Source: Planctomycetota bacterium (GTDB lineage Bacteria > Planctomycetota > UBA8108 > JACQVS01). From it: a DNA stretch of 64,000 bases. Below are positions 6,571-63,379 of the stretch, in pieces (within the stretch, counting starts at the first letter, position 1; each line of letters opens with the position of its first letter). A program made the position numbers and the translations under genes. The stretch is taken from positions 1,043 to 65,042 of the forward strand of contig JBFFXF010000001.1 in NCBI GenBank assembly GCA_041569895.1. The letters are read 5' to 3'. The notes under the pieces were generated by a model. It saw nothing but the letters and a program-made list of their open reading frames with translations, was not told the origin of the DNA and did not search any database.

Positions 6571-6602
6571 GCCCCGTCGTCCGCGGCCCGGCCACCGGAA
6601 CC

Positions 6603-19384: not shown

Positions 19385-19745
19385 GGCGGTAGCGTCCTCC
19401 CTCGCACCGGTGTACGGCGCCCTGAACGCGCCGAGTGCACGCGCAGCGCGCGCCCGGCAGCGTTCTCGGCCTGCGGCAAACAGGACCCACCCAGAAGGAC
19501 CTTGAAGAGCGAGTATACCAGAACGTAGCATGACGTGAACGGATTTCGTCCAAGGCCGCCGTTTCGGGCCCGGTCGGTCCGCACGGATCGACGCGCACGG
19601 CAAGGCTCGGGCCACGTTCGGAAAAAAGAGTGGCACGTTCGAGTGGCCGGAGCCGATAGACGTGCTGATGCGGGGGCCCGCTCCCCCGATTCGGAGCATC
19701 GGTTCTCGGAATTCATCAGGACAGAGACGCTCGGGAATTCGAACC

Positions 19746-34071: not shown

Positions 34072-35223
34072 TCAGGTTCGCAGGCGCGGATCCATCGCGT
34101 CGCGAAGCGCCTGGCCGACCAGATTGAACGACGTCACCGTGATGAAGATCGCGAGCCCCGGAGCCCACGCCAGGTAGAAGAGTCCCTCGCCGACGAACTC
34201 GCGGCCCTGCGCGACGATCTCGCCCCACGACGCCGTCGGCGGGACGACGCCGAAACCGAGGAACGACAGGGCGTTCTCCGTCAGCACCGCCGCCGCGACA
34301 CCGAACGTCGCGGTGACGAAAACCGGCTGGATGGCGTTCGGCAGGATGTGGCGAAACATCACGCGTCGCGGCGGCGCCCCGAGCGCGCGAGAGGCGTCGC
34401 AGTACTCGAGCGTCTTCACGCGCAGCACCTCGCCCCGCATCAGCCGGAAGATGGCCGTCCACCTGGTCAGCCCGATGACCAGCATGATGGTATAGATCGA
34501 CTTCGGCAAAAAAGCGATCATCGTGATGATCAGAAAGAAGGTCGGGAAGCACATCACGACCTCGGTGATGCGCGAGAGCACGGTGTCGATCCAGCCGCCG
34601 GCGTAGCCGGCGATCAGCCCCAGCACGACACCGATGATGACGTAAATCGACACCGCCACGACGCCGACCGAGAGCGAGACGATGGTCCCGTGGATCAGTC
34701 GCGCGAGGACGTCACGGCCCTGTCCGTCGGTGCCGAGGAGGTGCGTCTCGACCTGGTCGGGCGCCGGGCCCCAGCGGGTGGTCTCGAGCGGCCGGAGCTT
34801 GAACGCGTTGATCTCCCTGTAGCCGGAGAAGATCGGCGGCGCGATGTACCAGTCGCCGCGCGACGGGTCCCAGTCGGTCGCGATGGTCTCCTTCCAGCTC
34901 TTGCGGCCGAGCTCGGGATAGAAGTCGGAAAACGGGTTGCCGTCGCCGATTCGCAGTCGCCTCAGCCAGTCGACGACGACGCCGGGGAGCGGGAAGGAGT
35001 CGAGGTACGTCGGGAACGCCGGGAAGCAGAGCGAGCCCTGGTATCGCGCGACGATCGGGACATCGTTCGCGAGCAGAGGCGCGAGGAGGGCGACGACCAC
35101 CAGCACGGAGAGCACCGCGAGTCCCAGGACTCCCAGGCGGCTCTTCATGAACTGCCGCCGGACGATGGTCCAGGAGCTCCTGGCGCGCGGGAGCGGATCG
35201 GCTCGGACTGCAGGTCGCATCAT
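34072..35223 (-). CDS. ABC transporter permease, DppC/OppC-like
   Basis: N-terminal periplasmic extension, BPD transporter EAA-like motif region, 6 TM helices. ATGA overlap with the upstream permease. Confidence 0.85.
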   Translation of the reverse strand: MMRPAVRADPLPRARSSWTIVRRQFMKSRLGVLGLAVLSVLVVVALLAPLLANDVPIVARYQGSLCFPAFPTYLDSFPLPGVVVDWLRRLRIGDGNPFSDFYPELGRKSWKETIATDWDPSRGDWYIAPPIFSGYREINAFKLRPLETTRWGPAPDQVETHLLGTDGQGRDVLARLIHGTIVSLSVGVVAVSIYVIIGVVLGLIAGYAGGWIDTVLSRITEVVMCFPTFFLIITMIAFLPKSIYTIMLVIGLTRWTAIFRLMRGEVLRVKTLEYCDASRALGAPPRRVMFRHILPNAIQPVFVTATFGVAAAVLTENALSFLGFGVVPPTASWGEIVAQGREFVGEGLFYLAWAPGLAIFITVTSFNLVGQALRDAMDPRLRT

Positions 35224-37112
35224 TTCAGCTCGATCCTCGGGTCGACGATGCAGTAGAGCAGGTCGGAGATCAGGATGCCGATCATCGTCAGCACCGCGAC
35301 GAGCGTCGTGATCCCCATGATCACCGGATAGTCGCGCTGGAGGACGGCCTCGAAGCCGAGCGATCCCATGCCGGGAAGCGAGTAGATGCGCTCGATGATC
35401 ACCGAGCCGCCGATCACCGTCGGCAGCAGGTTCCCGAACACGGTGACGACCGGCAGCAGCCCGTTGCGCAGCGCGTGCACGCCGACGACGCGGCGCTCGG
35501 GCAGCCCCTTGGCGCGGGCCGTGCGCACGGCGTCCTGCGAGAGCGCCTCGAGCATGCTGGAGCGAACCAGCCGCGACAGGAACGCGAAGCTCGCGTACGT
35601 CAGCGCGGTCAGGGGCAGCACCAGGTGCAGCAGGTGATCCCAGACGTAGCTCAGGAACGGCAGGTCGCCGGCGTTGTCGGAGTGGAGGTTGACGAACGGC
35701 AGGATGCCGCCGGTCGGCCCCGCCGGACTTCCCAGCAGAATGATCAACATCGTCGCGACCCAGAAGCTCGGCATGCTGTAGAGCAGGAAGAGGACGAGTG
35801 TCGTCGCCTGATCGGACATCGAGTTCCGCCGGGCGGCGGAGAAGACGCCGAGCGGGATCGAGAGCAGATAGGTGATCAGGATCGAGACCAGGTTGAGCTC
35901 CAGGGTCACCGGCATCGCCTCGACGATCTTGTCCCAGACGGGACGGTCGTCCTTGAAGGAGAGGCCGAAATCGAGCCGGACAAGGCGCGAGAGCCAGTCG
36001 ACGTACGCCGGCACGAGCGGGACGTCGTCGACGTCGAGCGCGGCGGAGACGACACGCCCACCGTCACCGACCGCGACGGCGCGGACGACTCCCGAGTGGC
36101 CGGCGAGCGTGGCGCGCAGTCGACCCGCGGCGACATCCCAGAGCCGCACCGAGGCATCACGGCCGCCGGAGACGAGCAGATCTCCATCGCCGAGAGCGAC
36201 CGATTCGACGACCGCCGTGTGGCCGTCGAGGCGCGCCGTCACGGCGCGCCGGGCGGTGTCGATGAGCGCCACCGCGTTGTCGCCGAGACCCGCGGCGATC
36301 CGGCTGCCATCGGCGGCGACGTCGATCGCGTGGACCGGCGCACCGCAGTCGACCGGCGCGCCGACCTCCCTCCGTGTCGCGGCGTCCCAGAAACGCACCG
36401 TCCGGTCTCGCGAGGCCGACACGAGCACGCCGCCGGACAGCGACTCGACTCCGGTGACCTCGCCGATGTGCGCCTCGATCACATCCACGAGCTCGCCGGT
36501 GCGCGCGTTCCAGACCCGGACGGTCGCATCGCGTGAGCCGGTGATCAGGAGGTCGTCGTCCGCGAACGCGGCGCACCGGACGAGCAGGCCGTGCCCGGCG
36601 CACGTGGCCACCGGGCGGCCGGTCTCGACGTCCCACACGCGAGCGGTGCGGTCGTCGGAGCACGACGCGATGAGCGTCCCGTCGGGCGAGAAGGCCACGG
36701 CGTTGATCGCCGCTCCGTGGGCCTCGATGGTCCGCGGAGCGCGTCCCGGCTCGATCGGTCGCAGCACGATGCGTCCGTCGGCGGTGCCCGCGGCGACGAT
36801 CGTGCCTCCCGGCGACGTCGCCAGCGCGAGGACCGCGTCAGTCTCCGTCGTCGTGCCGACTCGCCTGCCGCTCCCGGAGTCCCACGATCGGATGGTCGCG
36901 GTCTCCTCGAGCAGGCCGAGCCGGATCTTCGAGCGCACGATCTGACGCTCGCGGTCGGAGAAATCACCGCCGCCCTCGAAGCCGCCGCTCGCCGCGATCG
37001 AGAACGCCACGGGGTCACCGGGCGCGAGGCGGATGATGAGAAACGTCACCATGGTGATCCCGAGGAGTGTCGGGATCATCAGCAGCAATCGTCGTGTGAT
37101 GTACTGGATCAC
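35220..37112 (-). CDS. ABC transporter permease, DppB/OppB-like, with a seven-blade WD40 beta-propeller of about 290 aa inserted in the first periplasmic loop
   Basis: N-terminal MIQYITRRLLLMIPTLLGITMVTFLIIRLAPGDPV and C-terminal ...DLLYCIVDPRIELK are canonical DppB ends in one continuous 630-aa frame. Residues ~95-385 contain WD repeats (SDDRTARVWDV, RDATVRVWNA, RDRTVRFWDA, RDASVRLWDV). Confidence 0.85.
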   Translation of the reverse strand: MIQYITRRLLLMIPTLLGITMVTFLIIRLAPGDPVAFSIAASGGFEGGGDFSDRERQIVRSKIRLGLLEETATIRSWDSGSGRRVGTTTETDAVLALATSPGGTIVAAGTADGRIVLRPIEPGRAPRTIEAHGAAINAVAFSPDGTLIASCSDDRTARVWDVETGRPVATCAGHGLLVRCAAFADDDLLITGSRDATVRVWNARTGELVDVIEAHIGEVTGVESLSGGVLVSASRDRTVRFWDAATRREVGAPVDCGAPVHAIDVAADGSRIAAGLGDNAVALIDTARRAVTARLDGHTAVVESVALGDGDLLVSGGRDASVRLWDVAAGRLRATLAGHSGVVRAVAVGDGGRVVSAALDVDDVPLVPAYVDWLSRLVRLDFGLSFKDDRPVWDKIVEAMPVTLELNLVSILITYLLSIPLGVFSAARRNSMSDQATTLVLFLLYSMPSFWVATMLIILLGSPAGPTGGILPFVNLHSDNAGDLPFLSYVWDHLLHLVLPLTALTYASFAFLSRLVRSSMLEALSQDAVRTARAKGLPERRVVGVHALRNGLLPVVTVFGNLLPTVIGGSVIIERIYSLPGMGSLGFEAVLQRDYPVIMGITTLVAVLTMIGILISDLLYCIVDPRIELK

Positions 37113-37161: not shown

Positions 37162-39183
37162 TCAGCTGTCGTCGTCCTTCGCGTCGTCCTTCAGCCAGAT
37201 GGTCGTCGGCCTCAAGCCGGTCTTGCCGATCCGGACGCCGCCGAACTTCTTGTTGATCAGCGCGCCGACTCTCCCGTGCGTGAGGAGAAGCATCGGCACG
37301 TCCTCGTGGAAATGACGGTTGAAGCGGTGAAACATCTCGGCGCGCTTTTCATCGTCGAACTCGCGACGCATCGCCTCGAGGAGCCGGTCGACCTCCTCGT
37401 TCTTCCAGCCGGCATGATTTCCGGCCCGCTCGATGCCCTGCGACGAGTGGAAGTTGTCGTAGGGGTCCATCCACGGGTCTTCCGGAGAGAGGAGCAGGCA
37501 GATGGCGTCGAACTCGCGATTGAAGAGCGCCTCGGTGAACTGCGACCACTCGGATTTGTCGATCGTGCAGTCGACGCCGACCGACTTGCACGCGTCGTTG
37601 ACCAGCACGCCGATGGTGTCGTACCAGGTCCTGCCGGCGGGAACGGTGAGCTCGAAGCGCAGCGGGACGCCGCCACGGTCGCGCACGCCGTCGCCGTCGC
37701 TGTCCTTCCATCCCGCCTCGTCGAGGAGGCGAGCCGCGAGCTGCGGATCGAAGCGACGCGGCTCGATGTCGTGCGAGTACTCGCGGTAGATCGGCTTCGT
37801 GGGGCAGGTCGCGATCTGGCCGCGCCCGCGTTCCATGTCCTTCCAGATGCGCTCGCGGTCGACGAGGTGGGCGATGGCGCGGCGGACCCGGACGTCGTCG
37901 AAGGGCGGGCGTCGGCAGTTGAACGTGATGTGCGAGAAACCGATGCGCGTGTGGTCGTACTCGTACCGGTCCGCGATCCCGGTGATCGTCGGATCGTTCT
38001 CGAGCTGGTCCTCCCACATCGAATGCTCGACGGAGACGACGTGAATCAGCCCCTTCCGGAACGCCTCGATCATCGATACGCGGTCCCGCACCCAGCGCCA
38101 CCGCAGCCGCTCGAGACGGTAGTGGTCGGGGTTCAGCGCGCGCAGCCACGCCCGGCCGTTCGCGAACAGCGTGACGTGCTGCGAGACCACCCGTGACTGG
38201 CCCTCGACCCACGTGTAGGGGCCCGTTCCCGGCGGCATCTCCTGCCCGAGGAGGTTGAAGACCTCCGCGAAACCGGGCTCGAGCGGCGTGACGCTGAAAC
38301 GCTCGATCCCCCGCTCTCGCGCCACGGCGGGGATCTTCCGCTCGTAGTACTCCTGCGGGAAGATCCGCAGCGCGTACCCGAACTGCTTGAGCGCCTTCCA
38401 GTACTTTCGCCGCATGCGCACCTCGACGGTGAGGGGATCGATCTTGCGCACGCTCGCCACGTCGTTGAAGGACGACTTGCGGCTCTCCGACTTGACGTCG
38501 GGATCGGCGACGAGGTTGTAGCTGAAGATGACGTCGTCGGCGTCGAAGGGAGACCCATCGGAAAAGGTCACGCCGCGGCGCAGGTGGAACCGGTAGGTGA
38601 GGCCATCGTCGCCGGTCTCCCATGCCACGGCGAGCTCCGGCCAGAGCTCCTGCGGGTTGTCGGGATTGACCGTGAAGAGCCGCTCGTGCACCTGCTCGTC
38701 GATCACCGACGCCATGCCGTCGTTGGTGAGGTAGTAGTTGTAGAGGCCGGGCTCGGCCATCCATCCGAAGATGAATGTCCCGCGCCGCGGCGGGATGAAG
38801 GCGGGTTGCCGTGCGGTGGTGCGGCCCGGAATCTCGGCGCCCGGAGGCGGCTCGATGGTGAAGCCGGGCGTCGCCTCGAGCGGTCGCCCGATGGCGTCCT
38901 TGCCGTCACCGAACCGTGCGGCGCCGGTCGAATCGGACCCGGCCCCCGTACCCGGCGCGGCGTCGATCCGCACCGGCCCGCCGGAGCCACGCACCTCGAG
39001 GACGATCCGATCGAGCCCCTCGACGCGCACCGACCGCGCCTGCACCTCCTCGATCTCGCGCCGCAGCTCGATGATCTTCTCCTGCTGGTGATCGAGAGAA
39101 CGCAGGATCATCCAGAGCGTGACGAGGATCAGACCGAGGAGAAAGACGATGATCACTCGTCCTGTGGTCCAGCCTTCGTTCAC
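37162..39183 (-). CDS. ABC transporter substrate-binding protein, family 5 (DppA/OppA-like), membrane-anchored with coiled-coil linker
   Basis: SBP_bac_5-type sequence. N-terminal TM anchor (RVIIVFLLGLILVTLWMIL) followed by a charged linker. GTG start at 39181-39183; the longer ORF start lies inside a hexamer repeat. Confidence 0.75.
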   Translation of the reverse strand: MNEGWTTGRVIIVFLLGLILVTLWMILRSLDHQQEKIIELRREIEEVQARSVRVEGLDRIVLEVRGSGGPVRIDAAPGTGAGSDSTGAARFGDGKDAIGRPLEATPGFTIEPPPGAEIPGRTTARQPAFIPPRRGTFIFGWMAEPGLYNYYLTNDGMASVIDEQVHERLFTVNPDNPQELWPELAVAWETGDDGLTYRFHLRRGVTFSDGSPFDADDVIFSYNLVADPDVKSESRKSSFNDVASVRKIDPLTVEVRMRRKYWKALKQFGYALRIFPQEYYERKIPAVARERGIERFSVTPLEPGFAEVFNLLGQEMPPGTGPYTWVEGQSRVVSQHVTLFANGRAWLRALNPDHYRLERLRWRWVRDRVSMIEAFRKGLIHVVSVEHSMWEDQLENDPTITGIADRYEYDHTRIGFSHITFNCRRPPFDDVRVRRAIAHLVDRERIWKDMERGRGQIATCPTKPIYREYSHDIEPRRFDPQLAARLLDEAGWKDSDGDGVRDRGGVPLRFELTVPAGRTWYDTIGVLVNDACKSVGVDCTIDKSEWSQFTEALFNREFDAICLLLSPEDPWMDPYDNFHSSQGIERAGNHAGWKNEEVDRLLEAMRREFDDEKRAEMFHRFNRHFHEDVPMLLLTHGRVGALINKKFGGVRIGKTGLRPTTIWLKDDAKDDDS

Positions 39184-39480
39184 ATCACGTCTCCGTTCTT
39201 CTTCCGGGCCCGGTTCTCGTCCTCGTCCTCGTCCTCGTCCTCGAAAACCCCTCGTCACCGCGTTGGATGTCCGATACCGAGACCGCTTTCGACCCTGACT
39301 CTGACTCCGACGCCGACCCCGATACCGACTCCGATACCGCTTCCGACCCCGATTCCGATACCGGCGCCGACACCGACCCCGACTCCGACACCGACACCGA
39401 TTCCGACTCCGATACCGATATCCTCGCGTGTGCTCTGCTCTGTCCGGTCACTTTCCGCGTGCTCTTCGTTTCCGCCCCCC
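39184..39480. repeat. composite intergenic hexamer-repeat element: (TCCTCG)n then (CCGAYN)n x~25
   Basis: Direct reading. Divergent spacer between the SBP gene and the FHA-M64 gene. Confidence 0.75.
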
Positions 39481-39583
39481 GCTTCCCGATCCCACCCTCT
39501 GGCCGTCGAGTGTATCATAGACCCTCTTGTTTCGACTCTCCCGCGTGAAGAGAGGCCGGCGCACCCATCACGGAGTTCCTCGC

Positions 39584-42500
39584 ATGAGAATCGTTCTCGA
39601 GGAGAACGCCGCCCGGCGCGTGTTCGAGTTCGAGGAGGGTCGCGAGCTGGTCCTCGGCCGCGCCCCGGACTGCGATATCCCGCTCGCGACGCTGCGCGCG
39701 TCGCGTCACCATGCCCGGATCGTCCTCGAGGACGGCCGGCACTGGCTGGTCGACGAGGGCTCGTCGAACGGGACTCTGGTCAACGGCGCGCGGGTGGACC
39801 GGCGCGCGCTCTCATCGGGGGACGTCATCGCCATCGGCGAGGCGCTGCTCCGCTTCGAGACCCACCGCCGGACCGGACTGGCGTTTCCCGGCGTCTACGC
39901 CGCGTTCCTCGCGCTGCTCTGGGCGGTGCTGGTGGTCTCGCTGGTCGTGCTGGCCGTGCGCCAGCTCACCGACGAGGGGGAGCGGCTGGCGGTGCGACGG
40001 GCGGGGTCGGTCTCCGGCATGGAGTCGGCCGGGGATCGCGGGAGCGCCGCGGATTCGGGTGCGGGTGCCGTACCCGTTCCCGTACCCGCTCCCGTACCCG
40101 TACCCGTACCCGTACCCGTTCCCGTACCCGTTCCCGACACCGACATCGAAACCGACACCGAAACCGACACCGATACCGATACCGATACCGATACCAAGAC
40201 CGACAGCGATTCCCGGGTGGCCGATGTGCTTCGTCCCATCATTGCCGGGGAGCGTGGCTGGGAGGGTGTCGATGCGCTCGTCGCGCTGCGCTCCGGGTCG
40301 CCGGATGCCGAGGACATGCCGTTTCTCGATCGGCTCGTGCCGGTGCTGCGCGGGCTTCGCGAGGGCGCGTGGCGTCGTCTCGACGAGCAGGCGGCGACCG
40401 CGATCGCGGCGCTCGTCGAGCGCGGCGAGGCGCGTTCCGCGGCGGCGACGGCGCGCTTCCTGGCGGTGGTCGCGCCGGGGGAGGACGCTCGTTCGCGCTG
40501 GGAGTCGGCGGCGCGATCGATCGAGGACAGCGTGGACCTCGAGTCGGACGGCGAGACGCAGCCTGTCGTGCCGCGCGAGGATCGGCGGCCCGACGACGAG
40601 CCGCTCTCATCGCCCGAGGCGCTCGCGCTCAAGGATCGCATCGCCGAGGCGATCGAGCAGTGTCGTTTCGATGAGCTCTCCTCGATCTACCACGCCCTGC
40701 TCGCCCTCGGGCCGTCGCCCGGCGAGCGCCTCCGCCTGCTCGAGGGATTGCTCGCGGCGTACGCGATGGAGGTGATGTTCGGCGAGTTCGTCGCGCGTGC
40801 GGCGACCGACCCGCCCGCGGTGAGCCCGTACGCGGGCTACGAGGGGCGCGTCCTCGAGGTGTCGCGCGATGCCGTCCGCTTCGAGCTCGACATCGAGGGG
40901 CGCGAGGGCGCGTACCGTGACAGCACGACGTGGCGCCGGATCACCTGGCCGAAGAAGCTCGAGCTCTTCAGCAGCGTCCCCCTGAGCCCGCGCGGCCTCG
41001 TCGGCGTCGCGCTCTACGCCTTTCACCACGGACACGAGGAGGGCGCGCACGCGGCGCTGATCCGCCTTCGCAAGCGCAAGGATGGCGCGACGCTCGCGGA
41101 CAGCGTCCTCGCGAGCCGGCTCGGCGTGCCGGTGCCGCCTGGCGGGTTCGTCGAGTATCGCGGCCGTCTCGTCACGCCGGAGTATCGCGCCGCCGAGATC
41201 GCCCGCCGCGAGCGCCTCGAGGAGGAGGAGCGCGCCGCGCGAGCGGAGCTCGAGCAGCTCAAGAAGGAGGCGGGGCTCGCCGCGTACGTGCAGGTCGCCC
41301 GCCGCTATCGCGAACGCGGGCTCTTCGAGCTCGCCCAGCACATCCTCGAGGTCCTCGCGCGACGCTTCTCGAACACCGAGGCCGGCGCGGAAGCGAGGCG
41401 GCTCGCCGATGATCCCGTCCTCGTCGTCAGGCCGATCGCCGCTTCCGGTCCGTCGAGCAACCGACTCGACATCTGCCTCCTCGGCGAGGGTTACACGCTC
41501 GACGACGAGGCGCAGGACGCGTTCCTCGCGCGCGCCCGCTCGGCGGCGTCGCTGCTCTTCAGGGAGGAGCCGTACCGCGAGTACGCCTCGTACTTCAGCC
41601 TGCACGCCGTGCAGGTCGCCTCGGCAGAGCACGGTCTCGATCGCGAGCCCGGCGGAGTGGCTCGCGACACCGCTCTCGGCGGCCGAGTCGAGTGGGACCG
41701 CTTCACCGTGGACGAGTCGCTGGTGCGCGCGATCCTCGCACGACTCGGCGATCGCGGCCGCGACGGACAGGCGGTGGTGATCGGGAACGCCCACGCCGGC
41801 GTGGCGACCGCGAGCCCCGGCATCGCGTGCATCTCGAAGATCGCGGTCGCCTCGCTCGGGCACGAGCTCGGCCACTCGCTCGGCAGCCTGCGCGACGAGT
41901 ACGACTTCGAGCCCGGCACCGATCCCGAGCGCCACGTCGACAACCGCCGCGAGCCCGACGTCCCGACCGCCGCGCTGCCGCCGAACATCATGCGCGGCTC
42001 GGACCGCGACGACGTGCTCGAGAAGGCCATCTGGCGGCCGTGGATCGAGGCGGGCGAGTCGCGGTGGTGGAACGGCGCCGGGGTCTCCGCCTTCCAGGGC
42101 GGCAACCGCAGGCGCTTCAACTACTGGCGCCCGCAGGCGACATGCAAGATGCGCACGTCGAGCGCGGAGTTCTGCGTCGTTTGCATGGAAGCGATGGTGA
42201 AGAGCATCTACCGCCACGTGCGCCCGATCGATCGCGTCGAGCCGTCGAGCGAGGAGGTCACCATCGACGAGGGCGGCTCGACGAGCGTGCGCGTCTGGAC
42301 CCTGAAGCCGCGCTCGCGATTCCTCGAGACGACCTGGCGCCTGGTCGAGCTCCAGGCGGAGCCGAACGCGACCGGAACCACCTCGGTCGCCGGCGACACA
42401 CGACCGGTCCCGCTCGCCAGGACCGGCCGCCGCATCGACCCGTCAGGCGCGCCGATCGAAATCGCCATCCTCCGGGACCTGGCGCCCGGACGCTACCGGC

Positions 42501-42601
42501 TTCAGGTCACCGTGCGAGACACGACGCCGTGGGTGCTCGACGACGGTGAGGGGCTGCTGTCGGAGGTGCGGGACTGGACGGTGGTGGTGCGGGGGCGGTG
42601 A
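39584..42601 (+). CDS. FHA-domain transmembrane protein with extracytoplasmic peptidase M64 (IgA-peptidase-like HExxH...DEY) domain
   Basis: N-terminal FHA (GRAPDCDIPL...SRHHARI...SSNGTLVNG). TM helix AFLALLWAVLVVSLVVLAV. C-terminal HELGHSLGSLRDEYD zinc-metallopeptidase motif. Confidence 0.8.
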   Translation: MRIVLEENAARRVFEFEEGRELVLGRAPDCDIPLATLRASRHHARIVLEDGRHWLVDEGSSNGTLVNGARVDRRALSSGDVIAIGEALLRFETHRRTGLAFPGVYAAFLALLWAVLVVSLVVLAVRQLTDEGERLAVRRAGSVSGMESAGDRGSAADSGAGAVPVPVPAPVPVPVPVPVPVPVPDTDIETDTETDTDTDTDTDTKTDSDSRVADVLRPIIAGERGWEGVDALVALRSGSPDAEDMPFLDRLVPVLRGLREGAWRRLDEQAATAIAALVERGEARSAAATARFLAVVAPGEDARSRWESAARSIEDSVDLESDGETQPVVPREDRRPDDEPLSSPEALALKDRIAEAIEQCRFDELSSIYHALLALGPSPGERLRLLEGLLAAYAMEVMFGEFVARAATDPPAVSPYAGYEGRVLEVSRDAVRFELDIEGREGAYRDSTTWRRITWPKKLELFSSVPLSPRGLVGVALYAFHHGHEEGAHAALIRLRKRKDGATLADSVLASRLGVPVPPGGFVEYRGRLVTPEYRAAEIARRERLEEEERAARAELEQLKKEAGLAAYVQVARRYRERGLFELAQHILEVLARRFSNTEAGAEARRLADDPVLVVRPIAASGPSSNRLDICLLGEGYTLDDEAQDAFLARARSAASLLFREEPYREYASYFSLHAVQVASAEHGLDREPGGVARDTALGGRVEWDRFTVDESLVRAILARLGDRGRDGQAVVIGNAHAGVATASPGIACISKIAVASLGHELGHSLGSLRDEYDFEPGTDPERHVDNRREPDVPTAALPPNIMRGSDRDDVLEKAIWRPWIEAGESRWWNGAGVSAFQGGNRRRFNYWRPQATCKMRTSSAEFCVVCMEAMVKSIYRHVRPIDRVEPSSEEVTIDEGGSTSVRVWTLKPRSRFLETTWRLVELQAEPNATGTTSVAGDTRPVPLARTGRRIDPSGAPIEIAILRDLAPGRYRLQVTVRDTTPWVLDDGEGLLSEVRDWTVVVRGR
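40070..40210 (+). repeat. in-frame hexamer arrays (CCCGTN)n + (ACCGAY)n encoding (PV)n and (TD)n inside the FHA-M64 gene
   Basis: Same two hexamer families as the intergenic elements; here the frame is maintained. Confidence 0.8.
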
Positions 42602-42649
42602 GGGGGGGCTCGTTCGCGAGATTCGACAACGAGCCTCGAATCGTCGTCG

Positions 42650-42860
42650 TCCTCGAAAGCCTTGGATGGCGGAGTCCGATGTCCGATTCCGCGATCCGAG
42701 TCCGATTCCGATGACCGATTCCGAGGTCCGACTCCGACGTCGACGTTGTAAGGAATGCGTTCCCGTACCCGAAAAGCCGGCGACTCACGCGAGGCTCACG
42801 AGGCTCGACCCACTCATGACTTCCGTTTCCTGCTTTCCCTGAGTTTCCTGCCTTCCTCAT
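42650..42860. repeat. (TCCGAN)n hexamer array plus second copy (about 85% identical, reverse orientation) of the first ~85 bp of the 12645-13060 element
   Basis: Direct alignment of the reverse complement of 42770-42860 with 12690-12780 (ggaaggcaggaaactcag...gggtcgagcytcgtgagcctc). Confidence 0.65.
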
Positions 42861-42917
42861 GGGTCGTTTGCAGGGTTTCGCCCGGGAAGTCGAGCAGCGT
42901 TCGGGACGGAAGAAGGC

Positions 42918-43904
42918 TCAGTTGCGCTCCGCCCGCAGCTCGTCCACGCGGCCCTCGAGGAAGCGGGTCAGGGCTCGTTCCATCTCGCGGGCGTTCTGGA
43001 AGCGCTGGCGCGGGTCCTTCGCCAGCGCTTTCGCGAGGACGCTCGTGAAGGTGCGTGGCACGTCCGGTCGGAGCTGGTGGGGCGGCTGGAACTCCTCCAC
43101 CTCGATGGCACGCAGCAGCTCGTGCAGGTCGTCGCGCACGACGGGGTAGTGGCCGGTGACGAGGTGGTAGAGGGCGACTCCGAGCGTGTAGATGTCGGTG
43201 CGCTCGTCAACGCCGTCGCCACGGACCTGCTCGGGGGCCATGAAGAGAGGCGAGCCGGCGATGCGGCCGGCGTCGTCGCTCGTCTCGCCGTGATGCTCTC
43301 GCGACAGGCCGAGACCGAAGTCGGCGAGCACGATCCGTCCGTTCTCCTCGCGGAGGAGATTGGCGGTCTTCAGGTCGCGGTGCACCAGTCCCGCCTCGTG
43401 CACGGCACGAAGGGCCCGGCAGACCGAGATGCCGATACGCGCGACCTCGCGCGCCGGCAACGGACCGTGCCTGGCGAGCGACGACTCGAGCGAGTCGCCG
43501 CGTACGTACTCGGTGACGAGCACGAGCTGGTCGTCCTCGAGCTCGAGGACGCCGAAGATGGTCAACACGTTCGGGTGGCGCACGCGCGCGAGCGCGCGGG
43601 CCTCACGGAGAAAGCTCTCGCGCGCGGACCGACTGAAGCGCAGGTGCGGCAGCGGAATCTTCAGCGCGACGTCGCGACCGAGCAGCTCATCGCGGGCGCG
43701 GTACACCTCTCCGAACGCGCCCTCTCCGATCTTCGACTCGATGGTGAAGCCAGGGATTTCGGGGAGCTGTTCGAGCGCCGCGGCGTCGTCGGGCATCGCG
43801 CGGAAGCGATCCTCGCGCCCCGGATCGAGGTCCAGGGTCTCCGCGAGGTCGTCGAGCGCGATCGACGCTGCGCGTTCTCGTGAGTCACTCGGTGTGGCGG
43901 ACAT
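42918..43904 (-). CDS. Ser/Thr protein kinase (kinase domain only, about 328 aa)
   Basis: GEGAFGEVYRA, ALK, HRDLKTANLL, DFGLG and APEQ motifs. ATG at 43902-43904. Confidence 0.8.
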   Translation of the reverse strand: MSATPSDSRERAASIALDDLAETLDLDPGREDRFRAMPDDAAALEQLPEIPGFTIESKIGEGAFGEVYRARDELLGRDVALKIPLPHLRFSRSARESFLREARALARVRHPNVLTIFGVLELEDDQLVLVTEYVRGDSLESSLARHGPLPAREVARIGISVCRALRAVHEAGLVHRDLKTANLLREENGRIVLADFGLGLSREHHGETSDDAGRIAGSPLFMAPEQVRGDGVDERTDIYTLGVALYHLVTGHYPVVRDDLHELLRAIEVEEFQPPHQLRPDVPRTFTSVLAKALAKDPRQRFQNAREMERALTRFLEGRVDELRAERN

Positions 43905-44164
43905 TCTGTTTTTCCAAACCCGCCGTCGTCGGTCGGGTTTCTCCTGTCCTGTCTCCCCTTGATGTCTCTCTCGCGTCGTTTTTTTTTCTCGCTCGCTCGT
44001 GATGAGAGACGTCGGAGAGCCCCATCCTTTCACAGGAAACCGCCGATTTTTCGCGGAAGGCCGGGGACGGACCACGTAAGTCCTTTGTCCAGGCCAGCCG
44101 GGGCGAAACCGGGAGACGCCGCTCGTTACAACGCCGTGACGGAAACGCGACGGTCGGCGGCGTC

Positions 44165-45319
44165 TCAGCCGACCGGGAAGCCGGTGTGGTGGGACATCCA
44201 GGCGGCGAGCCGCCGGATTCGGGTGGCGCTCCGGTCGCGGAAGAGAGTCTCGCGCCGGCCGCGCGTATCGTGGACCTGGAGCAGGTGGAGGATGCGCGGT
44301 GCGCGTCCCCGCGCGAAACGCGACGCGCGGTGCAGGACGATTCGCCCGTCCTCGAAGGTGCGTCGTATGCGCGTGCCGGGCGAGGAGACGAGCACCTCGA
44401 GCCGCCCCGGTGTCAGCCGATATCGCGTGCGGCTGAAGCACGAGACGACGAGCACGCCCGCGAGCACGAGGCCGACGAGGATCGACGGTGACAGGAAGAC
44501 CCACGTGCTCCAGTTCGCGGCGTCGAGGAGCGGCTGTCCGTCCGCGATGGGGTCCGGCGCGGCGCCGTGTCCGATGACCGCCACGAGGATGAGCCCGGCG
44601 AGCGCCGCGTTCCAGGCGAAGGTGACCGCGAGGAGCGAGAGGTTGCGTCGCAGGCGACCGAGCGGATCGAGCTCGACCGTCAGACCGTCGAGGTCGAAGA
44701 GCGCGACGAAGCCGCGTGGCGTCTCGTTGGCCGATGGACGGATCGACGCGTCCGCCTCATCGACGTGCGGCAACGCCTGGCGACCGAGCGCCCGCGAAAG
44801 GAGCTTGCGGAGCTTCGCGCGACCGGCTCGCGACGCCGCCGAGCCGATCGCCAGGGCGCCGCTGCCGAGCTGGATCCACAGCCGCTGTCGAGTCAGCGTC
44901 ACGCCGCGGATGGCGCGAGGTTCGATGACGCGCGAGCGGGCGAAGAACGCGACGCTCCGCCGGATCACCCAGCGGTCGCGCCGCACGTCGATGGTCTCGA
45001 CGAGGAACGCCCATCGCAGGAAGGAGATCAGCGCGACGACTCCACACGCGCTCCACACGAAGAGGAGCACCGTCGCGCAGGCGATCGCCGTGGCGCGCCA
45101 GTCCGCGCCGAGGCGCGACGCGCGCAGCAGCAGCTCGACGCCGGAGCACGACACGAGCACCCACAGCAGGGCGACGACGCTGACCGACGCGGCTGTCTCG
45201 ACGGTGGGCAACGGACGCGGCCCGATCGTCACCGTCACGCCGGATCCGTCACGCCGGACCCGCAGGGCGCCCCGCACCGCCCCGTTTCTCCCTGCCTTGC
45301 TTCGCGGAGCGTGACTCAT
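44165..45319 (-). CDS. hypothetical integral membrane protein
   Basis: Multiple hydrophobic helices. No family recognised. Confidence 0.5.
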   Translation of the reverse strand: MSHAPRSKAGRNGAVRGALRVRRDGSGVTVTIGPRPLPTVETAASVSVVALLWVLVSCSGVELLLRASRLGADWRATAIACATVLLFVWSACGVVALISFLRWAFLVETIDVRRDRWVIRRSVAFFARSRVIEPRAIRGVTLTRQRLWIQLGSGALAIGSAASRAGRAKLRKLLSRALGRQALPHVDEADASIRPSANETPRGFVALFDLDGLTVELDPLGRLRRNLSLLAVTFAWNAALAGLILVAVIGHGAAPDPIADGQPLLDAANWSTWVFLSPSILVGLVLAGVLVVSCFSRTRYRLTPGRLEVLVSSPGTRIRRTFEDGRIVLHRASRFARGRAPRILHLLQVHDTRGRRETLFRDRSATRIRRLAAWMSHHTGFPVG

Positions 45320-45356
45320 GCTTCGCGGCCAATCTTTGGTGGGGTGACGCGGCGAG

Positions 45357-46379
45357 TCAACGAAATTCGCCGCCCGCATCGCCGCTCGCGTCCCCCTTCA
45401 TACCGCCCCGCAGGTGCTGCAACGCGCGGGTGAAGTCATCGGGAAGGGGACACGTGAAGTGGCGCGGCTCGTCCCAGTGGGGCGGCAGGGTGTATCGATG
45501 CGCGTGGAGCGTCAGCCGTTCGATGCCGCGCACGGACGTCGGCGCGCGCGCCATCGGACCGACGCGGTACAGGGGATCGACGGCAAGGGGGTGACCGATC
45601 GCCCACGCGTGGACGCGGATCTGATGCGTGCGGCCCGTGAGCGGCAGCGCCCGAACCAGCGTCGCTCTCTCGAAACGCTCGACCACCTCGAAGACGGTGA
45701 CCGCATCCCGAGCCGTCTTGCCCGGCTTGCCGCCCGTCGCCGGCTCCGCGCGCATGCGGCCCTTGCGACCGGGACCGATCGGGCAGTCGATGGTCACGCG
45801 AGCCGGCTCGACGACGCCCTCGACGATCGCGAGGTACTCCTTCTCGATGCGCCGGTGCTCGAAGTCATCGCCGAGTCGGCGCTCCACCTCCGGCGTCAGC
45901 GCGACGATCACCAGTCCGCTCGTCAACCGGTCGATGCGGTGGACGATTCGCGGGCGCACGAAGCGCTCGGGGGGCTTGTCGCGCCGTGCCGCGAGCTCCC
46001 TCCGGATGACCAGCTCCAGACAGCTCGCGATCGCCCGGTCCCGATCGGGCACCACCGGCACGCCCGCGGGCTTGCCGAGCACGACGAGACGTGCGTCCTC
46101 GTGGAGGATGTCGATCTCCCCGGACGCGTCGTCGTTCTCGCTGCCGGCCTCGATCAGCATCGACGGCGTGTCCTCGATCGGTCGCCGGAGCACGAGCGCG
46201 TCGAGGTCGCCGACACGCTCGTCACCCGACAGCGCCCGCTCGCCGCTCCGCACGTCGCCGCGCTCGAGCACCTGCGCGATGGTGCGGCGAGACCGATCGG
46301 GCCAGAGGAGGGCGAGGTAGTCGATGAGGGGGAGGTCGTTGAAGGCGCGGTGGATGGGTACTGATAAGTCGGCGCGCAC
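45357..46379 (-). CDS. RluA-family 23S rRNA pseudouridine synthase
   Basis: VHRIDRLTSGLV catalytic Asp motif, S4-like N-terminus. GTG start at 46377-46379, placed just downstream of a hexamer array that the longer ORF reads through. Confidence 0.75.
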   Translation of the reverse strand: MRADLSVPIHRAFNDLPLIDYLALLWPDRSRRTIAQVLERGDVRSGERALSGDERVGDLDALVLRRPIEDTPSMLIEAGSENDDASGEIDILHEDARLVVLGKPAGVPVVPDRDRAIASCLELVIRRELAARRDKPPERFVRPRIVHRIDRLTSGLVIVALTPEVERRLGDDFEHRRIEKEYLAIVEGVVEPARVTIDCPIGPGRKGRMRAEPATGGKPGKTARDAVTVFEVVERFERATLVRALPLTGRTHQIRVHAWAIGHPLAVDPLYRVGPMARAPTSVRGIERLTLHAHRYTLPPHWDEPRHFTCPLPDDFTRALQHLRGGMKGDASGDAGGEFR

Positions 46380-47534: not shown

Positions 47535-50500
47535 TTACCTCGCGAGCCAGAACTCCGGCCAGTCGAACAGAGGCGGCGTGAGCTGGTGGCAGGAGTAGCA
47601 CTTGGTCTTTCCCGAATGGATCCTGTGCACCTGGAACGGAGACCCGCCGGCGAAGGGCCTGTTGTCATGGCAGAGCAAGCAGGCCAGGGAGGGCTCGGTG
47701 ATGGGCGGGTGCTGGCCCACGGGTCTCGGGTCATCTCCCTCGTGACAGTTGTGACACCACTGCCACTGTCCATTCACGTGCTTCTCGTGCACCATCCGCG
47801 GAGAGGCTGACTCCCCACCCTCGTGGCACAGGAAACATTCGTTGAAGCTCCTGCGGTCAACGAGTGCCCGGACCGGATCGTCGAGACCCGGCATGGGGTC
47901 TCGATCCTCCTGCAGATTCGCGGCCATGTGGCACGCCCCGCAGTCCAGTCTCTCGTCGACGTGCTTCTCGTGGAGTCGCTCGAATCTCCGGTCGAACTCC
48001 CATGGGTCCCTGTCGTTGTGACAGACATCGCAGACCACGGCCGCGCCACCCACAAGGGGACCGAAGGCGACATCGACCGCAGGGCGCTCGCCGTTGTGGC
48101 ACTCGAGACAGCTGAGACCTTTCGACGCGTGTTTCTTGTGAATCGTCCTGATGGAATCATTGCGCGGCCGTTCATGGCAGATGGTACAGACGAGACGCGA
48201 CCCCGAACCGATCTGCGTCCCGGCGTCGGGGATGAACCCGTGGCACACGGCGCAGTCCGCCTTGTCGGCGTGCTTTCGATGGATCTCCCGCGCGTTGGCC
48301 GTGCTCCTCTGTTCGCCGTGGCAGACGACGCACCGGTGGCCCCGTGTGGGTGTCTCCAGGTTTCCGGTCTCGGGGACTCCCGGATTGTGGCAGTGCCAGC
48401 ACTCGCCGTTGAAGGTGCCGAGGGGGCCCAGGATCGTCGAGCGCACATCGACGGGGTGGCATCGGACGCAGTCGGAGCCGTGGATGCCGAGGAGGTCCGG
48501 CTGCTGCGTCTCCGGGTTCAGATGGCAATTGCTGCAGTCGGTCGTCGCCTGGGGGTGGTTCTCCAGAACGACGACATCGACGGTACCGTTGATGTGAAGC
48601 GAGGGGTCGACGAAGTTGAAGACGCCGTCGACGACCATGCCGTGGCAGGTGTCGCACTGCGAGGACGGTGGATGCGGCGCGTCGGGTGGGAGACCGTGGC
48701 AGGTGCCGCACGCTGCCTGGGTGCCGTCGACGATGGTCCAGATCGGCTCGGTGTTCTGGCCACCGGGGATGAGGGTGGGGCCGTGACAGTAGACGCCGGA
48801 ACACGACTCGGCAGCGCGATCGAAGACGGGCAGGGCGCCGTCGGCGGAGGCCAGGGCGCTCCAGGTGAGCTCCGCCGGCGCCGCGTCGATGTGGCCCGGG
48901 TCGGCTGCCTCCGCCGGCACGCGGTGACAGTCGCGGCAGAGGATCTCGCGGTGCCACGCGCTCGTCCCGAGGTGCGACTGGTGCGCGCCGACGGTCACCA
49001 GCGAGACGTCGGTGGCACCGAAGGTGTCGACCGGCGGCGCCGGGTTGACGGGACTGCCGTGACAGTTGCCGCAAACGATGGAGAAGTCGGACGATCCGAT
49101 CAGACCGAGCTCAACCGTCCCCGCATCGGGGTCGTTGCTCGAGATCTCGATGCAGCCGGCGTCGACACCGGCGTCGAGAGGCGTGTACGTGACCGTCAGG
49201 GCCGCGCTGCCTCCAGGCGCGATGATGGTCGAGGTGGGCGGGTCCCAGGTGAATTCGCCGGTGGTTCCCGCGCAGCGAACGAGACTCGAGATCACGAGAT
49301 CCGACTGGCCCATGTTGAGCACCCGCGTGGTCAGGCGCTTCCTGGTGAGGCGGAATACGCTCCCGAAGTCCAGAGAAGTCGGATCGAGGACGATGTCCGC
49401 ACCCCCGGAGACCGCGGCTCCAACCAGGCCGAGTTGGATGGCGGATGTGTCGGGATCGTCGCTGAGGATCTCGAGGCAGCCGGCATCCGTGCCGCGCTCC
49501 GTTGGCGCGTAAGTCACGGTGAGCGTCTCGCTCCCCCCCGGAAGGATGGTCACGGGGTCCAGCGGCGTCCACGTGAACTCCGCACTGGTGCCGGCGCACG
49601 GGACGATCCCCGAGATGGTGAGAGACGTCGTGCCGAGGTTCCACACTCGCGCGGACCGGCTCGCGGCGCCTGCCAGGGAGACGGTGCCGAAGTCGAGCCA
49701 CGACGGGTCGAGAACGATGTCCGGCTGCCGGGCGCCCCCGTTTCCCGCGAGGTCGAGCACCGTGGGCGCGGCCGGGTCGTTGCTGGCAATCTCCAGACAG
49801 CCCGCGTCCCGGCCGGAGTCGACCGGCGAGTACGTCACGATGAGCGTCTCACTCCCGCCCGACGGGATCGTCACCGAGCCCTGGGGCTCCCAGGTGAACT
49901 CTGCGGTCGTGCCCGCGCACCGCACGACATCCGAGACGGAGAGAGGCCCCCTCCCGAGGTTCCATACTCGGACGGTCCGTCTCTGCGTGTCGCCGGAGGA
50001 GACCGTGCCAAAGTCCAGAGCCGGCGGCTCGAGGACGATTCTCGGTTCCGCCGCGGTCGTTCCCGTGCCCCTGAGCGTCAGGCTCACCGTGCGGCTGTCC
50101 GGATCGCTGCTGACGATCTCGAGGCAACCGAGGTCCGTGACCTCCGCTTGCGGTTTATAGCGCACGGTCAGTATTTCGCGATCGCCCGGGGGGATGGAGA
50201 GCAACGGGCTCGGCGTCCAGCTGAAACTCCTGCTGCTTCCCGTGCAGAAGCCGATGTTCCAGATCGTCAGCTCCTGCGTGCCCGTATTCCACAGCTCGGT
50301 GGTTCGCGCGCGCGTGGTCCCGAGCCCGACGCTCCCGAACTCGAGAGCGAGTGGATTCACGACGATGTTCGGCTCGGCTGCCGTGGTGCTGCTCGCCACG
50401 ATCGCGAGCCTGACCACGGGCTCGTCGGGATCGTCGCTCGCCACCTCGAGGCAGCCGAGATCGTGGCCGAGATCGGATGGAGCATAGGTGACCGCGAGGA

Positions 50501-51389: not shown

Positions 51390-51833
51390 CGGTGACTGCC
51401 TCCGCCTCGGGACCTTCACTGGAACGTCGAACGTCGGGGACAAGGCTGAGCGGTCCTCCGGCCTGACATAGCCGGTCCTCGCAATCTGCGTGCCAGCAGC
51501 AAAGCCCGAAGCGATTGCGCGCCCCGAAGGCCGCGGCTTCCCGATCGTCTTCCTGTCGTCCTGTCACGATGGCAGTGTTCCGGGTAATTCCCCACTCTGC
51601 GTGAGTTTTACACCATGCGTCTGCGATCTCGGTCATTGGAACTCTCGCGGCTCGAGGTCTCGGCCAATACGCCGGCGGAACCACCCGCTGTCGTCAAACC
51701 GACCGGGTCCCGCGAGCGTGCTCCCGGCTCGATCCGTCCAATCCCGAACGCCAAAAGCGGAAGCGTTGTTGCGGCCGAAGAAGGAACGTCGAGGACACGA
51801 GAGGTGGAATCCGCTCCGGGGCGAGATCTGAAG

Positions 51834-52112
51834 ATGAATATGTCGCGACTCGAGAAGATCTGTTTCAACGTGTGCACCGTTTCGATCCTCGTGGGATCCG
51901 TCCTGTCGCTGCCGATGATCTGGGGCGGCGTCAGCGACGACGGATGGCTCTGGAAGTCGTGGCTCACGGCCGTGGTCTTCTTCACCGCGTCCGGCCTCAT
52001 TCTCAGCATAAGCCGCGCGATTACCGGCCGGCCCGAGAAACGAGACGCGGGCGCCGATCACGACTCGCGCGTCGTTTCCGGAAGCTCCGCCCCGACAGAC
52101 GCGGCGTCGTAG
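51834..52112 (+). CDS. small hypothetical membrane protein (92 aa)
   Basis: Two hydrophobic helices, lower local GC. Weak call. Confidence 0.3.
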   Translation: MNMSRLEKICFNVCTVSILVGSVLSLPMIWGGVSDDGWLWKSWLTAVVFFTASGLILSISRAITGRPEKRDAGADHDSRVVSGSSAPTDAAS

Positions 52113-52249
52113 AGTGGCGAGATCCGGCGCGAGACGGCAAGCGCGCGCGCCGAGACGCTGGCGTGATCGATCGGATCGGTATTGACCCCGCGGTCGGCCT
52201 GTGTTTCGATCGACGACTCCGAATCGGCTTCACCACCTCGAGTCGCACC

Positions 52250-63251: not shown

Positions 63252-63379
63252 GGGACTCTCCTGGATAGAGGTGGTTGCTCCGTCGAGCCCGGCGACGATC
63301 GCCTGCTGCTCTATCCAGGGACACGAGATCCGCGCACGAGGGCTGCAGAGAAAAAGCGCCGCGGCGGGCGATTCCTCTC

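Follow-up and report, generated by a model that had tools for sequence, protein, structure and literature searches.

Can a domain that reads phosphothreonine (pThr) inside a bacterial cell direct a zinc peptidase beyond the cytoplasmic membrane? The question is raised by one gene in a 64-kb stretch of Planctomycetota DNA (the window, here meaning the whole stretch analysed). Its product was originally predicted to combine a cytoplasmic FHA domain, a single transmembrane (TM) helix and a large extracytoplasmic region ending in an M64 metallopeptidase. The coordinates proposed for the gene, 39584..42601 on the + strand, were borne out by the open reading frame (ORF) and its translation into 1,005 amino acids. 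The ATG start codon is at 39584, with GGAG ~11 nt 5' of it, and the stop codon at 42599-42601. A TTG at 39527 was rejected as an upstream start; the ATG is preferred because homologues align from it and GGAG precedes it. GC3 is 0.89, a value usual for real genes of the window, whose GC content is ~69%, and full-length homologues are 39-51% identical to the protein, which is a real, conserved Planctomycetota protein. A promoter and terminator scan of 39200-44300 gave no match; such a scan is uninformative for Planctomycetota.

The cytoplasmic FHA domain comprises amino acids 1-92 (39584..39859, + strand). Pfam FHA (PF00498) matches amino acids 23-85 (E=6.4e-18; 65.4 bits against a cut-off of 20.7), and the domain has the 11-stranded β-sandwich fold of the class, so that profile and fold agree with the assignment. 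The pThr-contacting residues R26, S40, R41, H43 and N62 are all present (GR, SRxH and NG motifs), are kept in 30-35 of the 37 FHA-bearing relatives, and align with those of Rv1747 and GarA; Rv1747 is also the best PDB sequence match of the domain (9e-13). The conserved residues point to a canonical pThr-binding type, and the domain would be expected to bind pThr.

The M64 zinc metallopeptidase catalytic domain spans amino acids 612-880 (41417..42223, + strand). Pfam Peptidase_M64 (PF09471; MEROPS M64) matches amino acids 618-797 and a second stretch (E=2.2e-26; 93.2 bits against a gathering score of 26), the M64 catalytic fold is present, and 48 of 48 aligned relatives match the same family. 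The FHA and M64 assignments, for which a profile search had been proposed as the check, are thus both far over their curated cut-offs. The catalytic zinc motif quoted in the original prediction, HELGHSLGSLRDEYD, translates exactly from 41861..41905 (+ strand) and contains H760, E761, H764 and D771, followed by the predicted second-zinc ligand E772. The HEXXHXXXGXXD signature here reads HELGHSLGSLRD, in which the Gly position is occupied by S768 (G in 33 of 48 relatives) and G767 stands just before it. In this signature two His and one Asp are zinc ligands and the Glu is the general base; we assigned ligand roles after H539, H543, D550 and E551 of ThomasA (PMC12402451). H760, E761, H764, D771, E772 and Y773 are invariant in all 48 relatives. 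A Cys cluster (C854-x9-C864-x2-C867; 42143..42184, + strand, from the translation) is predicted to form a structural zinc site with E772. It is kept in 43-46 of the 48 relatives and aligns with CRMRTN..FCPVC of BF3526; in ThomasA, C606, C616 and C619 bind a second Zn together with E551, at an identical C-x9-C-x2-C spacing (PMC12402451). Judged by its conserved residues, the domain is catalytically intact, and because these residues are strictly conserved it appears to be an enzyme rather than a degenerate sensor.

The predicted single TM helix (LAFPGVYAAFLALLWAVLVVSLVVLAV, amino acids 99-125; 39878..39958, + strand) lies within an AF2 helix (102-140). Only one segment of the protein passes the Kyte-Doolittle threshold of 1.6 (amino acids 107-125, score 2.96), and every FHA-bearing homologue has one hydrophobic segment at the equivalent position. 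Two family signals place the M64 part outside the cytoplasm, as had been claimed: K+R is 4.25 on the N side of the TM helix versus 1.94 on the C side (N>C in 28 of 36 members), and a signal peptide or anchor directly precedes the M64 part in 93 of 158 close M64 relatives. The protein in the window alone reverses the positive-inside count (K/R 2 on the N side, 4 on the C side); the case for its topology is thus made by the rest of the family and by the absence of a signal peptide ahead of the folded 92-amino-acid FHA domain. By these computations we predict a bitopic, N-in/C-out membrane protein with an exported catalytic domain. The peptidase had been described as displayed on the outside; it is indeed placed outside the cytoplasm, but it would face the periplasm rather than the cell surface, because it is tethered to the cytoplasmic membrane of a diderm Planctomycetota cell. 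The tether itself (amino acids 134-206; 39983..40201, + strand) is a disordered, low-complexity periplasmic segment (AF2 pLDDT <50) with runs of the dipeptides (PV)n and (TD)n, whose codons form in-frame hexanucleotide microsatellites at 40068-40136 (CCGTAC x11.5) and 40134-40209 (CCGACA x12.7).

Between tether and peptidase lies an α-helical TPR-like region with a small three-stranded β insert and no Pfam family (amino acids 207-611; 40202..41416, + strand). A fold search with the helical region returned only generic TPR matches, too unspecific to assign it a function; as a scaffold, it probably binds substrate or a partner. The resemblance to BepA, a periplasmic M48 metalloprotease with TPR from Escherichia coli, is of this generic TPR kind and covers ~75 residues; BepA belongs to M48 and not M64, has the reverse domain order and lacks both membrane anchor and FHA domain. 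Contrary to the prediction, the protein does not end in M64: a conserved β-sandwich (Ig-like) domain of ~120 amino acids follows (AF2 strands 882-1003; 42227..42592, + strand). It carries the conserved motif D979-x-T981-x-W983-V984 and is shared with secreted M64 relatives of ~450 amino acids, whose matches reach the end of the query.

BF3526 of Bacteroides fragilis (PDB 4DF9 and 9QDI) and a BACOVA homologue (3P1V) are M64 relatives at only ~22% identity. BF3526 has ~400 amino acids and is labelled 'Lipoprotein' in PDB 9QDI; by comparison, the protein in the window adds the FHA domain, TM anchor and C-terminal β-sandwich, and before M64 it has the ~400-amino-acid TPR-like region and no Pfam match to Peptidase_M64_N (PF16217) at E<=0.1. 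The founding M64 member, the IgA protease ThomasA/IgAse of Thomasclavelia ramosa (PDB 9QA6 and 9QDH), is a Gram-positive surface protein that is secreted, is probably anchored by sortase and has DUF6273 as its N-terminal domain; it cleaves IgA and, unlike the protein in the window, has no cytoplasmic part. IgA as a substrate makes no sense in environmental Planctomycetota.

Homologue searches with the full length (single sequence; profile A1) were dominated by matches to low-complexity and FHA words and yielded only one true relative; a query of amino acids 231-1005 and an exhaustive representative search were effective. The FHA–TM–M64 architecture is conserved within the family, and three relatives (P0038, P0056 and P0063) carry other cytoplasmic modules in place of FHA. 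Every relative comes from an uncultured MAG, so that tests will have to be heterologous. Literature on M64, the FHA domain and peptidases contained no characterised FHA–M64 fusion, in agreement with the original prediction, and nothing relevant was found on FHA, metalloproteases and Planctomycetes; a 2025 survey of the M64 family mentions neither FHA nor TM (PMC12402451).

Genomic context was compared by all-against-all ORF clustering over 45 non-redundant homologous loci, the window included. Across these loci the FHA–M64 family had no conserved link to a kinase, a phosphatase or any other partner gene, and PP2C had no match among the neighbouring genes that were Pfam-scanned or annotated on the contigs looked up. 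For that reason the phospho-signal is deduced purely from the FHA residues. The recurrent neighbours (NAD-binding oxidoreductase, ParA/MinD-like ATPase, FolB/HPPK, ROK, PLD and rpmH) were rejected as functional partners: they are housekeeping genes common to closely related marine lineages and so reflect synteny instead of a functional link. None of them occurs in the 64-kb window.

Taken together, these features suggest that kinase signalling positions or controls an extracytoplasmic protease, and we lean towards inside-out control by docking as the best explanation. The M64 ectodomain, with its TPR-like scaffold and β-sandwich, would hang in the periplasm from a flexible tether of ~70 residues, while the FHA domain would sit on the cytoplasmic side, ~6-12 residues off the membrane. 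A Ser/Thr kinase would phosphorylate a partner close to the membrane, either itself or a substrate; the FHA domain would bind the partner's pThr; and binding would fix, cluster or stabilize the protein at particular membrane sites. Docking may so set the place and time at which the peptidase on its tether encounters periplasmic substrates. A disordered tether of this length makes allosteric coupling across the membrane unlikely, and as modelled it favours control by localization or clustering over allostery or inward reporting. A phosphorylation-controlled protease, one of the two readings first put forward, is an inference.

The closest functional analogy is Rv1747, an ABC exporter of Mycobacterium tuberculosis that has FHA domains in the cytoplasm and is regulated by PknF. 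In this membrane protein, FHA/pThr interactions positively regulate an activity directed towards the extracytoplasm (PMC3138270). Rv1747 is polytopic, works as a transporter, carries two FHA domains and shares an operon with its kinase, whereas the protein in the window has a single FHA domain and a single TM helix, its output is a protease, and linkage to a kinase is not conserved. For the actinobacterial cell-envelope regulators FhaA (Rv0020c) and FipA/FhaB (Rv0019c), the match scores 56 bits, far under the equivalog cut-off of 125, and neither protein has an extracytoplasmic enzyme.

An alternative that concerns the substrate is that of a nutritional peptidase, which would trim periplasmic peptides for uptake by an Opp/Dpp-like ABC system while the FHA domain only modulated its abundance. 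Such a system is encoded head-to-head with the FHA–M64 gene (SBP_bac_5, 37162-39258; WD40-permease, 35220-37112; both divergent to it), and BF3526, the closest solved relative, acts on N-termini once proteins have been pre-digested and does not attack intact IgA (PMC12402451). However, this peptide-type binding protein and permease adjoin none of the other 44 homologous loci, and a long TPR-like scaffold with a signalling domain would be unusual in a bulk nutritional peptidase; we regard this role as unlikely.

The FHA domain could instead be a phospho-independent scaffold or oligomerization module, as in T3SS YscD/EscD or T7SS EssC, building a ring or cluster without kinase input. Pfam Yop-YscD_cpl (PF16697) does match, at 45.1 bits against a cut-off of 33.2, over a stretch that overlaps the FHA match. 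The gross layout of an N-terminal cytoplasmic FHA domain, one TM helix and a large periplasmic part is also shared with YscD/EscD and with GltG of Myxococcus gliding (NCBIfam GltG local match to the FHA–TM protein, 7e-10), and the lack of conserved kinase linkage would suit such a role. In contrast to YscD/EscD and GltG, the protein in the window keeps its pThr-binding residues, and its periplasmic part, TPR-like plus M64, is an enzyme and holds none of the ring-building domains of the YscD/EscD type (PF16697). Nor are there T3SS genes among the neighbours or secretion or motility genes nearby. A purely structural FHA domain is, in our assessment, quite improbable.

If docking depends on a kinase, the neighbouring one had seemed the obvious candidate partner, phosphorylating itself or the FHA–M64 protein to create the site that FHA binds, the two genes forming a functional pair. 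This soluble, kinase-domain-only Ser/Thr kinase of 328 amino acids (42918..43904, − strand; Pkinase E=2.2e-49 over amino acids 54-303; membership of the system not established) lies downstream and, as described, is convergent, although the spacing is 316 bp and not 317 bp. Its start is supported by GC3 (0.88 in the CDS versus 0.56 upstream); a longer ORF from a GTG at 44504 was rejected on the same values and on an Arg/Pro-rich upstream translation. The catalytic core is intact (GEGAFG, VALK, HRDLK, DFG, APE), and, being soluble, with no hydrophobic segment, the kinase could reach a membrane-proximal FHA domain. Profiling of the family for adjacent kinases, which had been suggested as a check, found one in 3 of the 45 loci, of differing kinds and orientations: a convergent 328-amino-acid kinase in the window, a divergent 331-amino-acid kinase at locus L012 and a co-directional 1336-amino-acid kinase–TPR protein at L003. 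The three are not orthologous; the window kinase is 32% identical to that of L012, no closer than to the two other kinases of the same window, which lie at about 6900-7700 and at 9229-12630. The presence of three kinases within 64 kb makes it plausible that the two genes are neighbours by chance. Of the close relatives that were examined (44-49% identity: L009, L010, L011, L012, L013, L014 and L039), L012 alone has an adjacent kinase. Three adjacent genes among five kinases in 543 kb of flanks hint weakly at enrichment, but all five lie in high-GC, kinase-rich lineages; we rejected this statistic as evidence because ~1.2 adjacent kinases would be expected there by our own estimate, an excess that is not significant. 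Kinases can make up as much as 8% of Planctomycetota proteomes (PMC11032199). The two genes of the window, being convergent, are not co-transcribed, and the operon-type FHA/kinase linkage of PknF–Rv1747, PknB–FhaA/FhaB or PpkA–Fha1 is lacking. The neighbour is thus probably not a dedicated partner, and a functional pair is quite improbable.

The second of the readings first put forward was inward reporting. In such a scheme a periplasmic ligand would be sensed or processed by the TPR-like/M64 ectodomain and this relayed inward to alter FHA binding. It fits a bitopic, receptor-like layout and the ability of TPR-like regions to bind ligands and proteins but is very improbable, since a single TM helix and a ~70-residue disordered tether cannot plausibly pass on a conformational change, the strictly conserved catalytic residues indicate an enzyme, and related ectodomains function without any cytoplasmic part.

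What is known of Ser/Thr kinase signalling in bacteria mostly concerns cytoplasmic targets, transporters and the complexes of cell-wall synthesis. Were control by docking confirmed, a conserved protein would physically couple a pThr reader to a periplasmic zinc protease, and Ser/Thr kinase signalling would extend to proteolysis beyond the cytoplasm. Planctomycetota are known for very large sets of kinases and for an unusual biology of the cell envelope. More speculatively, and on balance unlikely as a whole, the FHA–TM–TPR–M64 family could be a Planctomycetota-specific inside-out signalling device. Ser/Thr phosphorylation in the cytoplasm would bring a periplasmic protease to defined membrane sites, or cluster it there, to cut particular envelope proteins, for instance in FtsZ-independent division or budding or in envelope remodelling; P0038, P0056 and P0063 would then represent alternative inputs to the same output. 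If so, a direct connection between Hanks-kinase signalling and extracytoplasmic proteolysis would be seen for the first time. To our knowledge, the characterised M64 members are gut-bacterial enzymes only; the family is widened here by an environmental, membrane-anchored branch with a new TPR-like accessory region.

The FHA-M64 gene runs from an ATG at 39584, preceded by GGAG, to a stop codon at 42601 on the forward strand and encodes 1005 residues. The coordinates of the original prediction are borne out, and GC at third codon positions (0.89) is what real genes in the window (about 69% GC) usually show. The domain content proposed there was recovered by Pfam searches, which placed an FHA domain at residues 23-85 (E=6.4e-18) and a Peptidase_M64 domain at residues 618-797 and in one further stretch (E=2.2e-26); each match clears its curated cut-off by a wide margin. 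The expected zinc motif, HELGHSLGSLRDEYD, is encoded at 41861-41905 (+), and the hydrophobic segment at residues 99-125 (Kyte-Doolittle 2.96) is the sole candidate transmembrane (TM) helix, in agreement with the single helix predicted. A scan for promoters and terminators around this gene and the neighbouring kinase gene found nothing.

AlphaFold2 was run with 11 family sequences (mean pLDDT 77.7) and again on the middle region (pLDDT 86.8). The modelled protein begins with an FHA beta-sandwich (residues 1-92), followed by a linker of about 6-12 residues and a long helix (residues 102-140) containing the TM segment. A disordered tether (residues 134-206), including (PV)n and (TD)n runs, leads to the helical TPR-like region, for which a fold search returned non-specific matches only. 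The M64 catalytic domain (residues 612-880) is followed by a C-terminal beta-sandwich (residues 882-1003), missed by the original prediction, which was right about the M64 domain but wrong in placing it at the end of the protein. The two dipeptide runs are encoded by adjoining in-frame hexanucleotide microsatellites, CCGTAC x11.5 (40068-40136) for (PV)n and CCGACA x12.7 (40134-40209) for (TD)n, and slippage at these repeats may make tether length variable. The counterparts in homologues are non-repetitive Pro/Ala-rich linkers. The FHA-to-TM linker is by far the shortest in the window protein (40-150 residues in most homologues), and a ~45-residue helical segment present in all full-length homologues is missing from it (columns ~510-595 of the family alignment; consensus ...LERxLxxLxxxGxxxxALRAL...RFxG...LLPRYxDA).

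The hallmark of the M64 family is HEXXHXXXGXXD; in ThomasA, the Thomasclavelia ramosa IgA protease, the catalytic zinc is bound by two His and one Asp (H539, H543, D550), and E551, directly after D550, coordinates a second zinc together with C606, C616 and C619, as defined in a 2025 structural study of M64 enzymes (PMC12402451). The equivalents in the window protein are H760, E761, H764 and D771 for the catalytic residues and E772, C854, C864 and C867 for the second zinc, and the C-x9-C-x2-C spacing is identical. All 48 aligned sequences have H760, E761, H764, D771, E772 and Y773, and 43-46 of them retain the three cysteines; the sole deviation from the motif is S768, which is Gly in 33 of the 48 relatives. 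The M64 domain therefore looks like an active enzyme rather than a degenerate binding module, as judged from these conserved residues.

A 92-residue folded domain without a signal peptide before a single TM helix implies an N-in, C-out topology. Across 36 family members, the 15 residues preceding the helix contain on average 4.25 K+R and 0.4 D+E, compared with 1.94 and 1.9 in the 15 residues following it, and K+R is higher on the N-terminal side in 28 of them. The window protein is an exception (2 K+R versus 4), so that the positive-inside argument is a comparative one. Independent support came from sorting the 158 closest M64 representatives by N-terminus: in 93, the M64 part is immediately preceded by a hydrophobic N-terminus resembling a signal peptide or anchor, 33 have the FHA-TM N-terminus and 3 another long cytoplasmic N-terminus preceding a TM; the others, mostly fragments, have no hydrophobic N-terminus (18) or no HExxH motif (11). 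The M64-bearing ectodomain is thus predicted to be an exported module. Being tethered to the cytoplasmic membrane, it would face the periplasm of a diderm planctomycete; the extracytoplasmic location originally proposed therefore stands, whereas display on the cell surface does not.

An exhaustive HMMER search with residues 231-1005 against 1.84 billion representatives yielded 65 proteins below 1e-30, and the full FHA-TM-M64 architecture was found in 33 representative clusters (50% identity) among the closest relatives examined. With one genome scanned per species, 42 loci were recovered, of which about 33 cover the whole protein length; almost all are from Planctomycetota metagenome-assembled genomes (marine, groundwater and sludge samples) and none is from a cultured organism. 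The closest match is 49% identical. Homologues are already public under the automatic names 'M64 family metallopeptidase' and 'FHA domain-containing protein', but their architecture has yet to be described: a literature search on M64 and FHA found no paper combining the two, consistent with the earlier statement that no characterized fusion of this kind was known, and a survey of M64 peptidases notes three Planctomycetota clusters with nothing on FHA or membrane anchoring (PMC12402451). The window protein differs from characterized M64 enzymes in these two features and in its TPR-like N-terminal accessory region, which has no PF16217 match. Three relatives (P0038, P0056 and P0063) share the TM, TPR-like, M64 and beta-sandwich ectodomain, with a 290-400-residue non-FHA cytoplasmic N-terminus in place of FHA. 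This region contains about five LGxxLVxxGxLxxxQ-like helical repeats in P0063 and a CxxCG...C..C element in P0038 and P0056; no Pfam family was reported for any of the three, and their sequences suggest exchangeable cytoplasmic input modules. Besides M64 and FHA/YscD, Pfam detected CARDB, NPCBM_assoc, Kre9_KNH, NAR2 and TPR_19 in one member each of 48 aligned relatives.

The window looks planctomycetal, with many kinases, DUF1573/ASH repeats and a PF07638-type ECF sigma factor (8612-9229, +) immediately followed by a 1133-residue Ser/Thr kinase with two WD40 propeller regions (9229-12630, +). A further kinase domain lies upstream of the sigma-factor gene (about 6900-7700, within 5682-8633, +), giving, with the kinase next to the FHA-M64 gene, three Hanks kinases in 64 kb. 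Elsewhere, a 770-residue protein (17501-19813, −) contains at least six Kazal-type serine-protease-inhibitor domains (Kazal_1, E=1.4e-47). In a 1342-residue protein (47535-51563, −), multihaem cytochrome c7/c3 and Geobacter CxxxxCH motifs occur together with ASH/HYDIN-type Ig repeats and DUF1573; the protein possibly serves extracellular electron transfer or is located at the surface. Two ORFs with coding-type GC3 (51605-54169, +, 854 residues; 61239-63998, −, at least 919 residues) had no Pfam match at E<=1e-4.

Divergent from the FHA-M64 gene lies a gene for a 698-residue SBP_bac_5 peptide-type binding protein with an N-terminal anchor (37162-39258), and directly downstream of it one for a 630-residue WD40-permease fusion (35220-37112, −). 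This fusion is unusual: a WD40 beta-propeller (residues 73-360) is inserted between TM1 (residues 9-27) and TM2 (residues 396-414) of an OppB/DppB-type ABC permease (BPD_transp_1, residues 419-628), which places the propeller in a periplasmic loop. BF3526, a Bacteroides fragilis M64 peptidase, trims the N-termini of pre-digested proteins (PMC12402451), so by analogy the window peptidase could possibly process peptides; the TPR-like scaffold points to proteins as substrates or binding partners. A nutritional peptidase feeding this Opp-like system would concern the substrate and be compatible with our main model, but it is unlikely, as the Opp-like neighbourhood is unique to the window. None of the window neighbours adjoins a homologue at any of the other 44 non-redundant loci, and the genes seen repeatedly at those loci have housekeeping roles and are common to closely related lineages.

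The neighbouring kinase (42918-43904, −) is, as first described, convergent with the FHA-M64 gene and essentially a bare kinase domain (328 residues, soluble); its start is supported by GC3 (0.88 in the CDS versus 0.56 upstream). Within the 316-bp intergenic region, about 10 copies of a TCCGAT-like unit form a degenerate hexamer/13-mer tandem repeat (42672-42741). On the same strand, 260 bp upstream of the kinase, is a gene for a 404-residue protein (44165-45379, −) that has no Pfam match and whose four predicted TMs form two similar halves; farther on lie genes for an RluA-type pseudouridine synthase and a HAD hydrolase. An iterated profile search of all loci (543 kb of flanks) found five kinases, all in high-GC, kinase-rich lineages. 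Three adjoin the FHA-M64 gene (in the window and at loci L003 and L012), against about 1.2 estimated to do so by chance in such lineages, and these three are unlike one another in size, domain content and orientation; the kinase next to the window gene shares 32% identity with the L012 kinase and just as much with the other two kinases in the window. In Planctomycetota, kinases can make up as much as 8% of the proteome (PMC11032199). Adjacency thus provides little evidence, and the kinase originally singled out as the obvious partner is no more a candidate than the genome's other kinases; that it is a dedicated partner is quite improbable, its adjacency not being conserved. Conserved kinase linkage, which defines operon-type kinase/FHA modules, is likewise absent from this family.

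The FHA domain contains the phospho-threonine-contacting residues (Arg of GR, Ser/Arg/His of SRxH and Asn of NG), conserved in 30-35 of 37 family members, and its best PDB sequence matches are phospho-threonine binders: the Rv1747 FHA domain (9e-13), GarA and OdhI. Every sequence and fold feature assessed agreed with membership of M64 and of phospho-threonine-type FHA domains. A phospho-independent scaffold, as in YscD, is quite doubtful given these residues and the fold ranking, and the gene context of YscD-type proteins is absent around the window protein.

In one conserved polypeptide, a canonical FHA domain is thus joined by a single TM helix to an exported M64 peptidase with intact catalytic residues and a TPR-like accessory region. 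We infer that the FHA domain would bind a partner close to the membrane through a phospho-threonine on it. Conformational changes could not plausibly pass in either direction across some 70 disordered residues of periplasmic tether, and the likeliest effect of docking would therefore be positional: it may recruit, cluster or retain the protease at those places that kinases have marked, or might alternatively control protease stability. Inward reporting of protease activity, raised in the original prediction, is highly improbable given this tether and the intact active site. That the same ectodomain occurs in relatives with other cytoplasmic modules, or with none, fits an exchangeable cytoplasmic input and an unvarying output in the periplasm. 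The closest parallel is the membrane transporter Rv1747, whose FHA domains mediate positive regulation by PknF (PMC3138270). FHA-regulated membrane machines are already known, and the FHA-M64 architecture lends itself to a straightforward, testable hypothesis in which kinases direct proteolysis in the periplasm.
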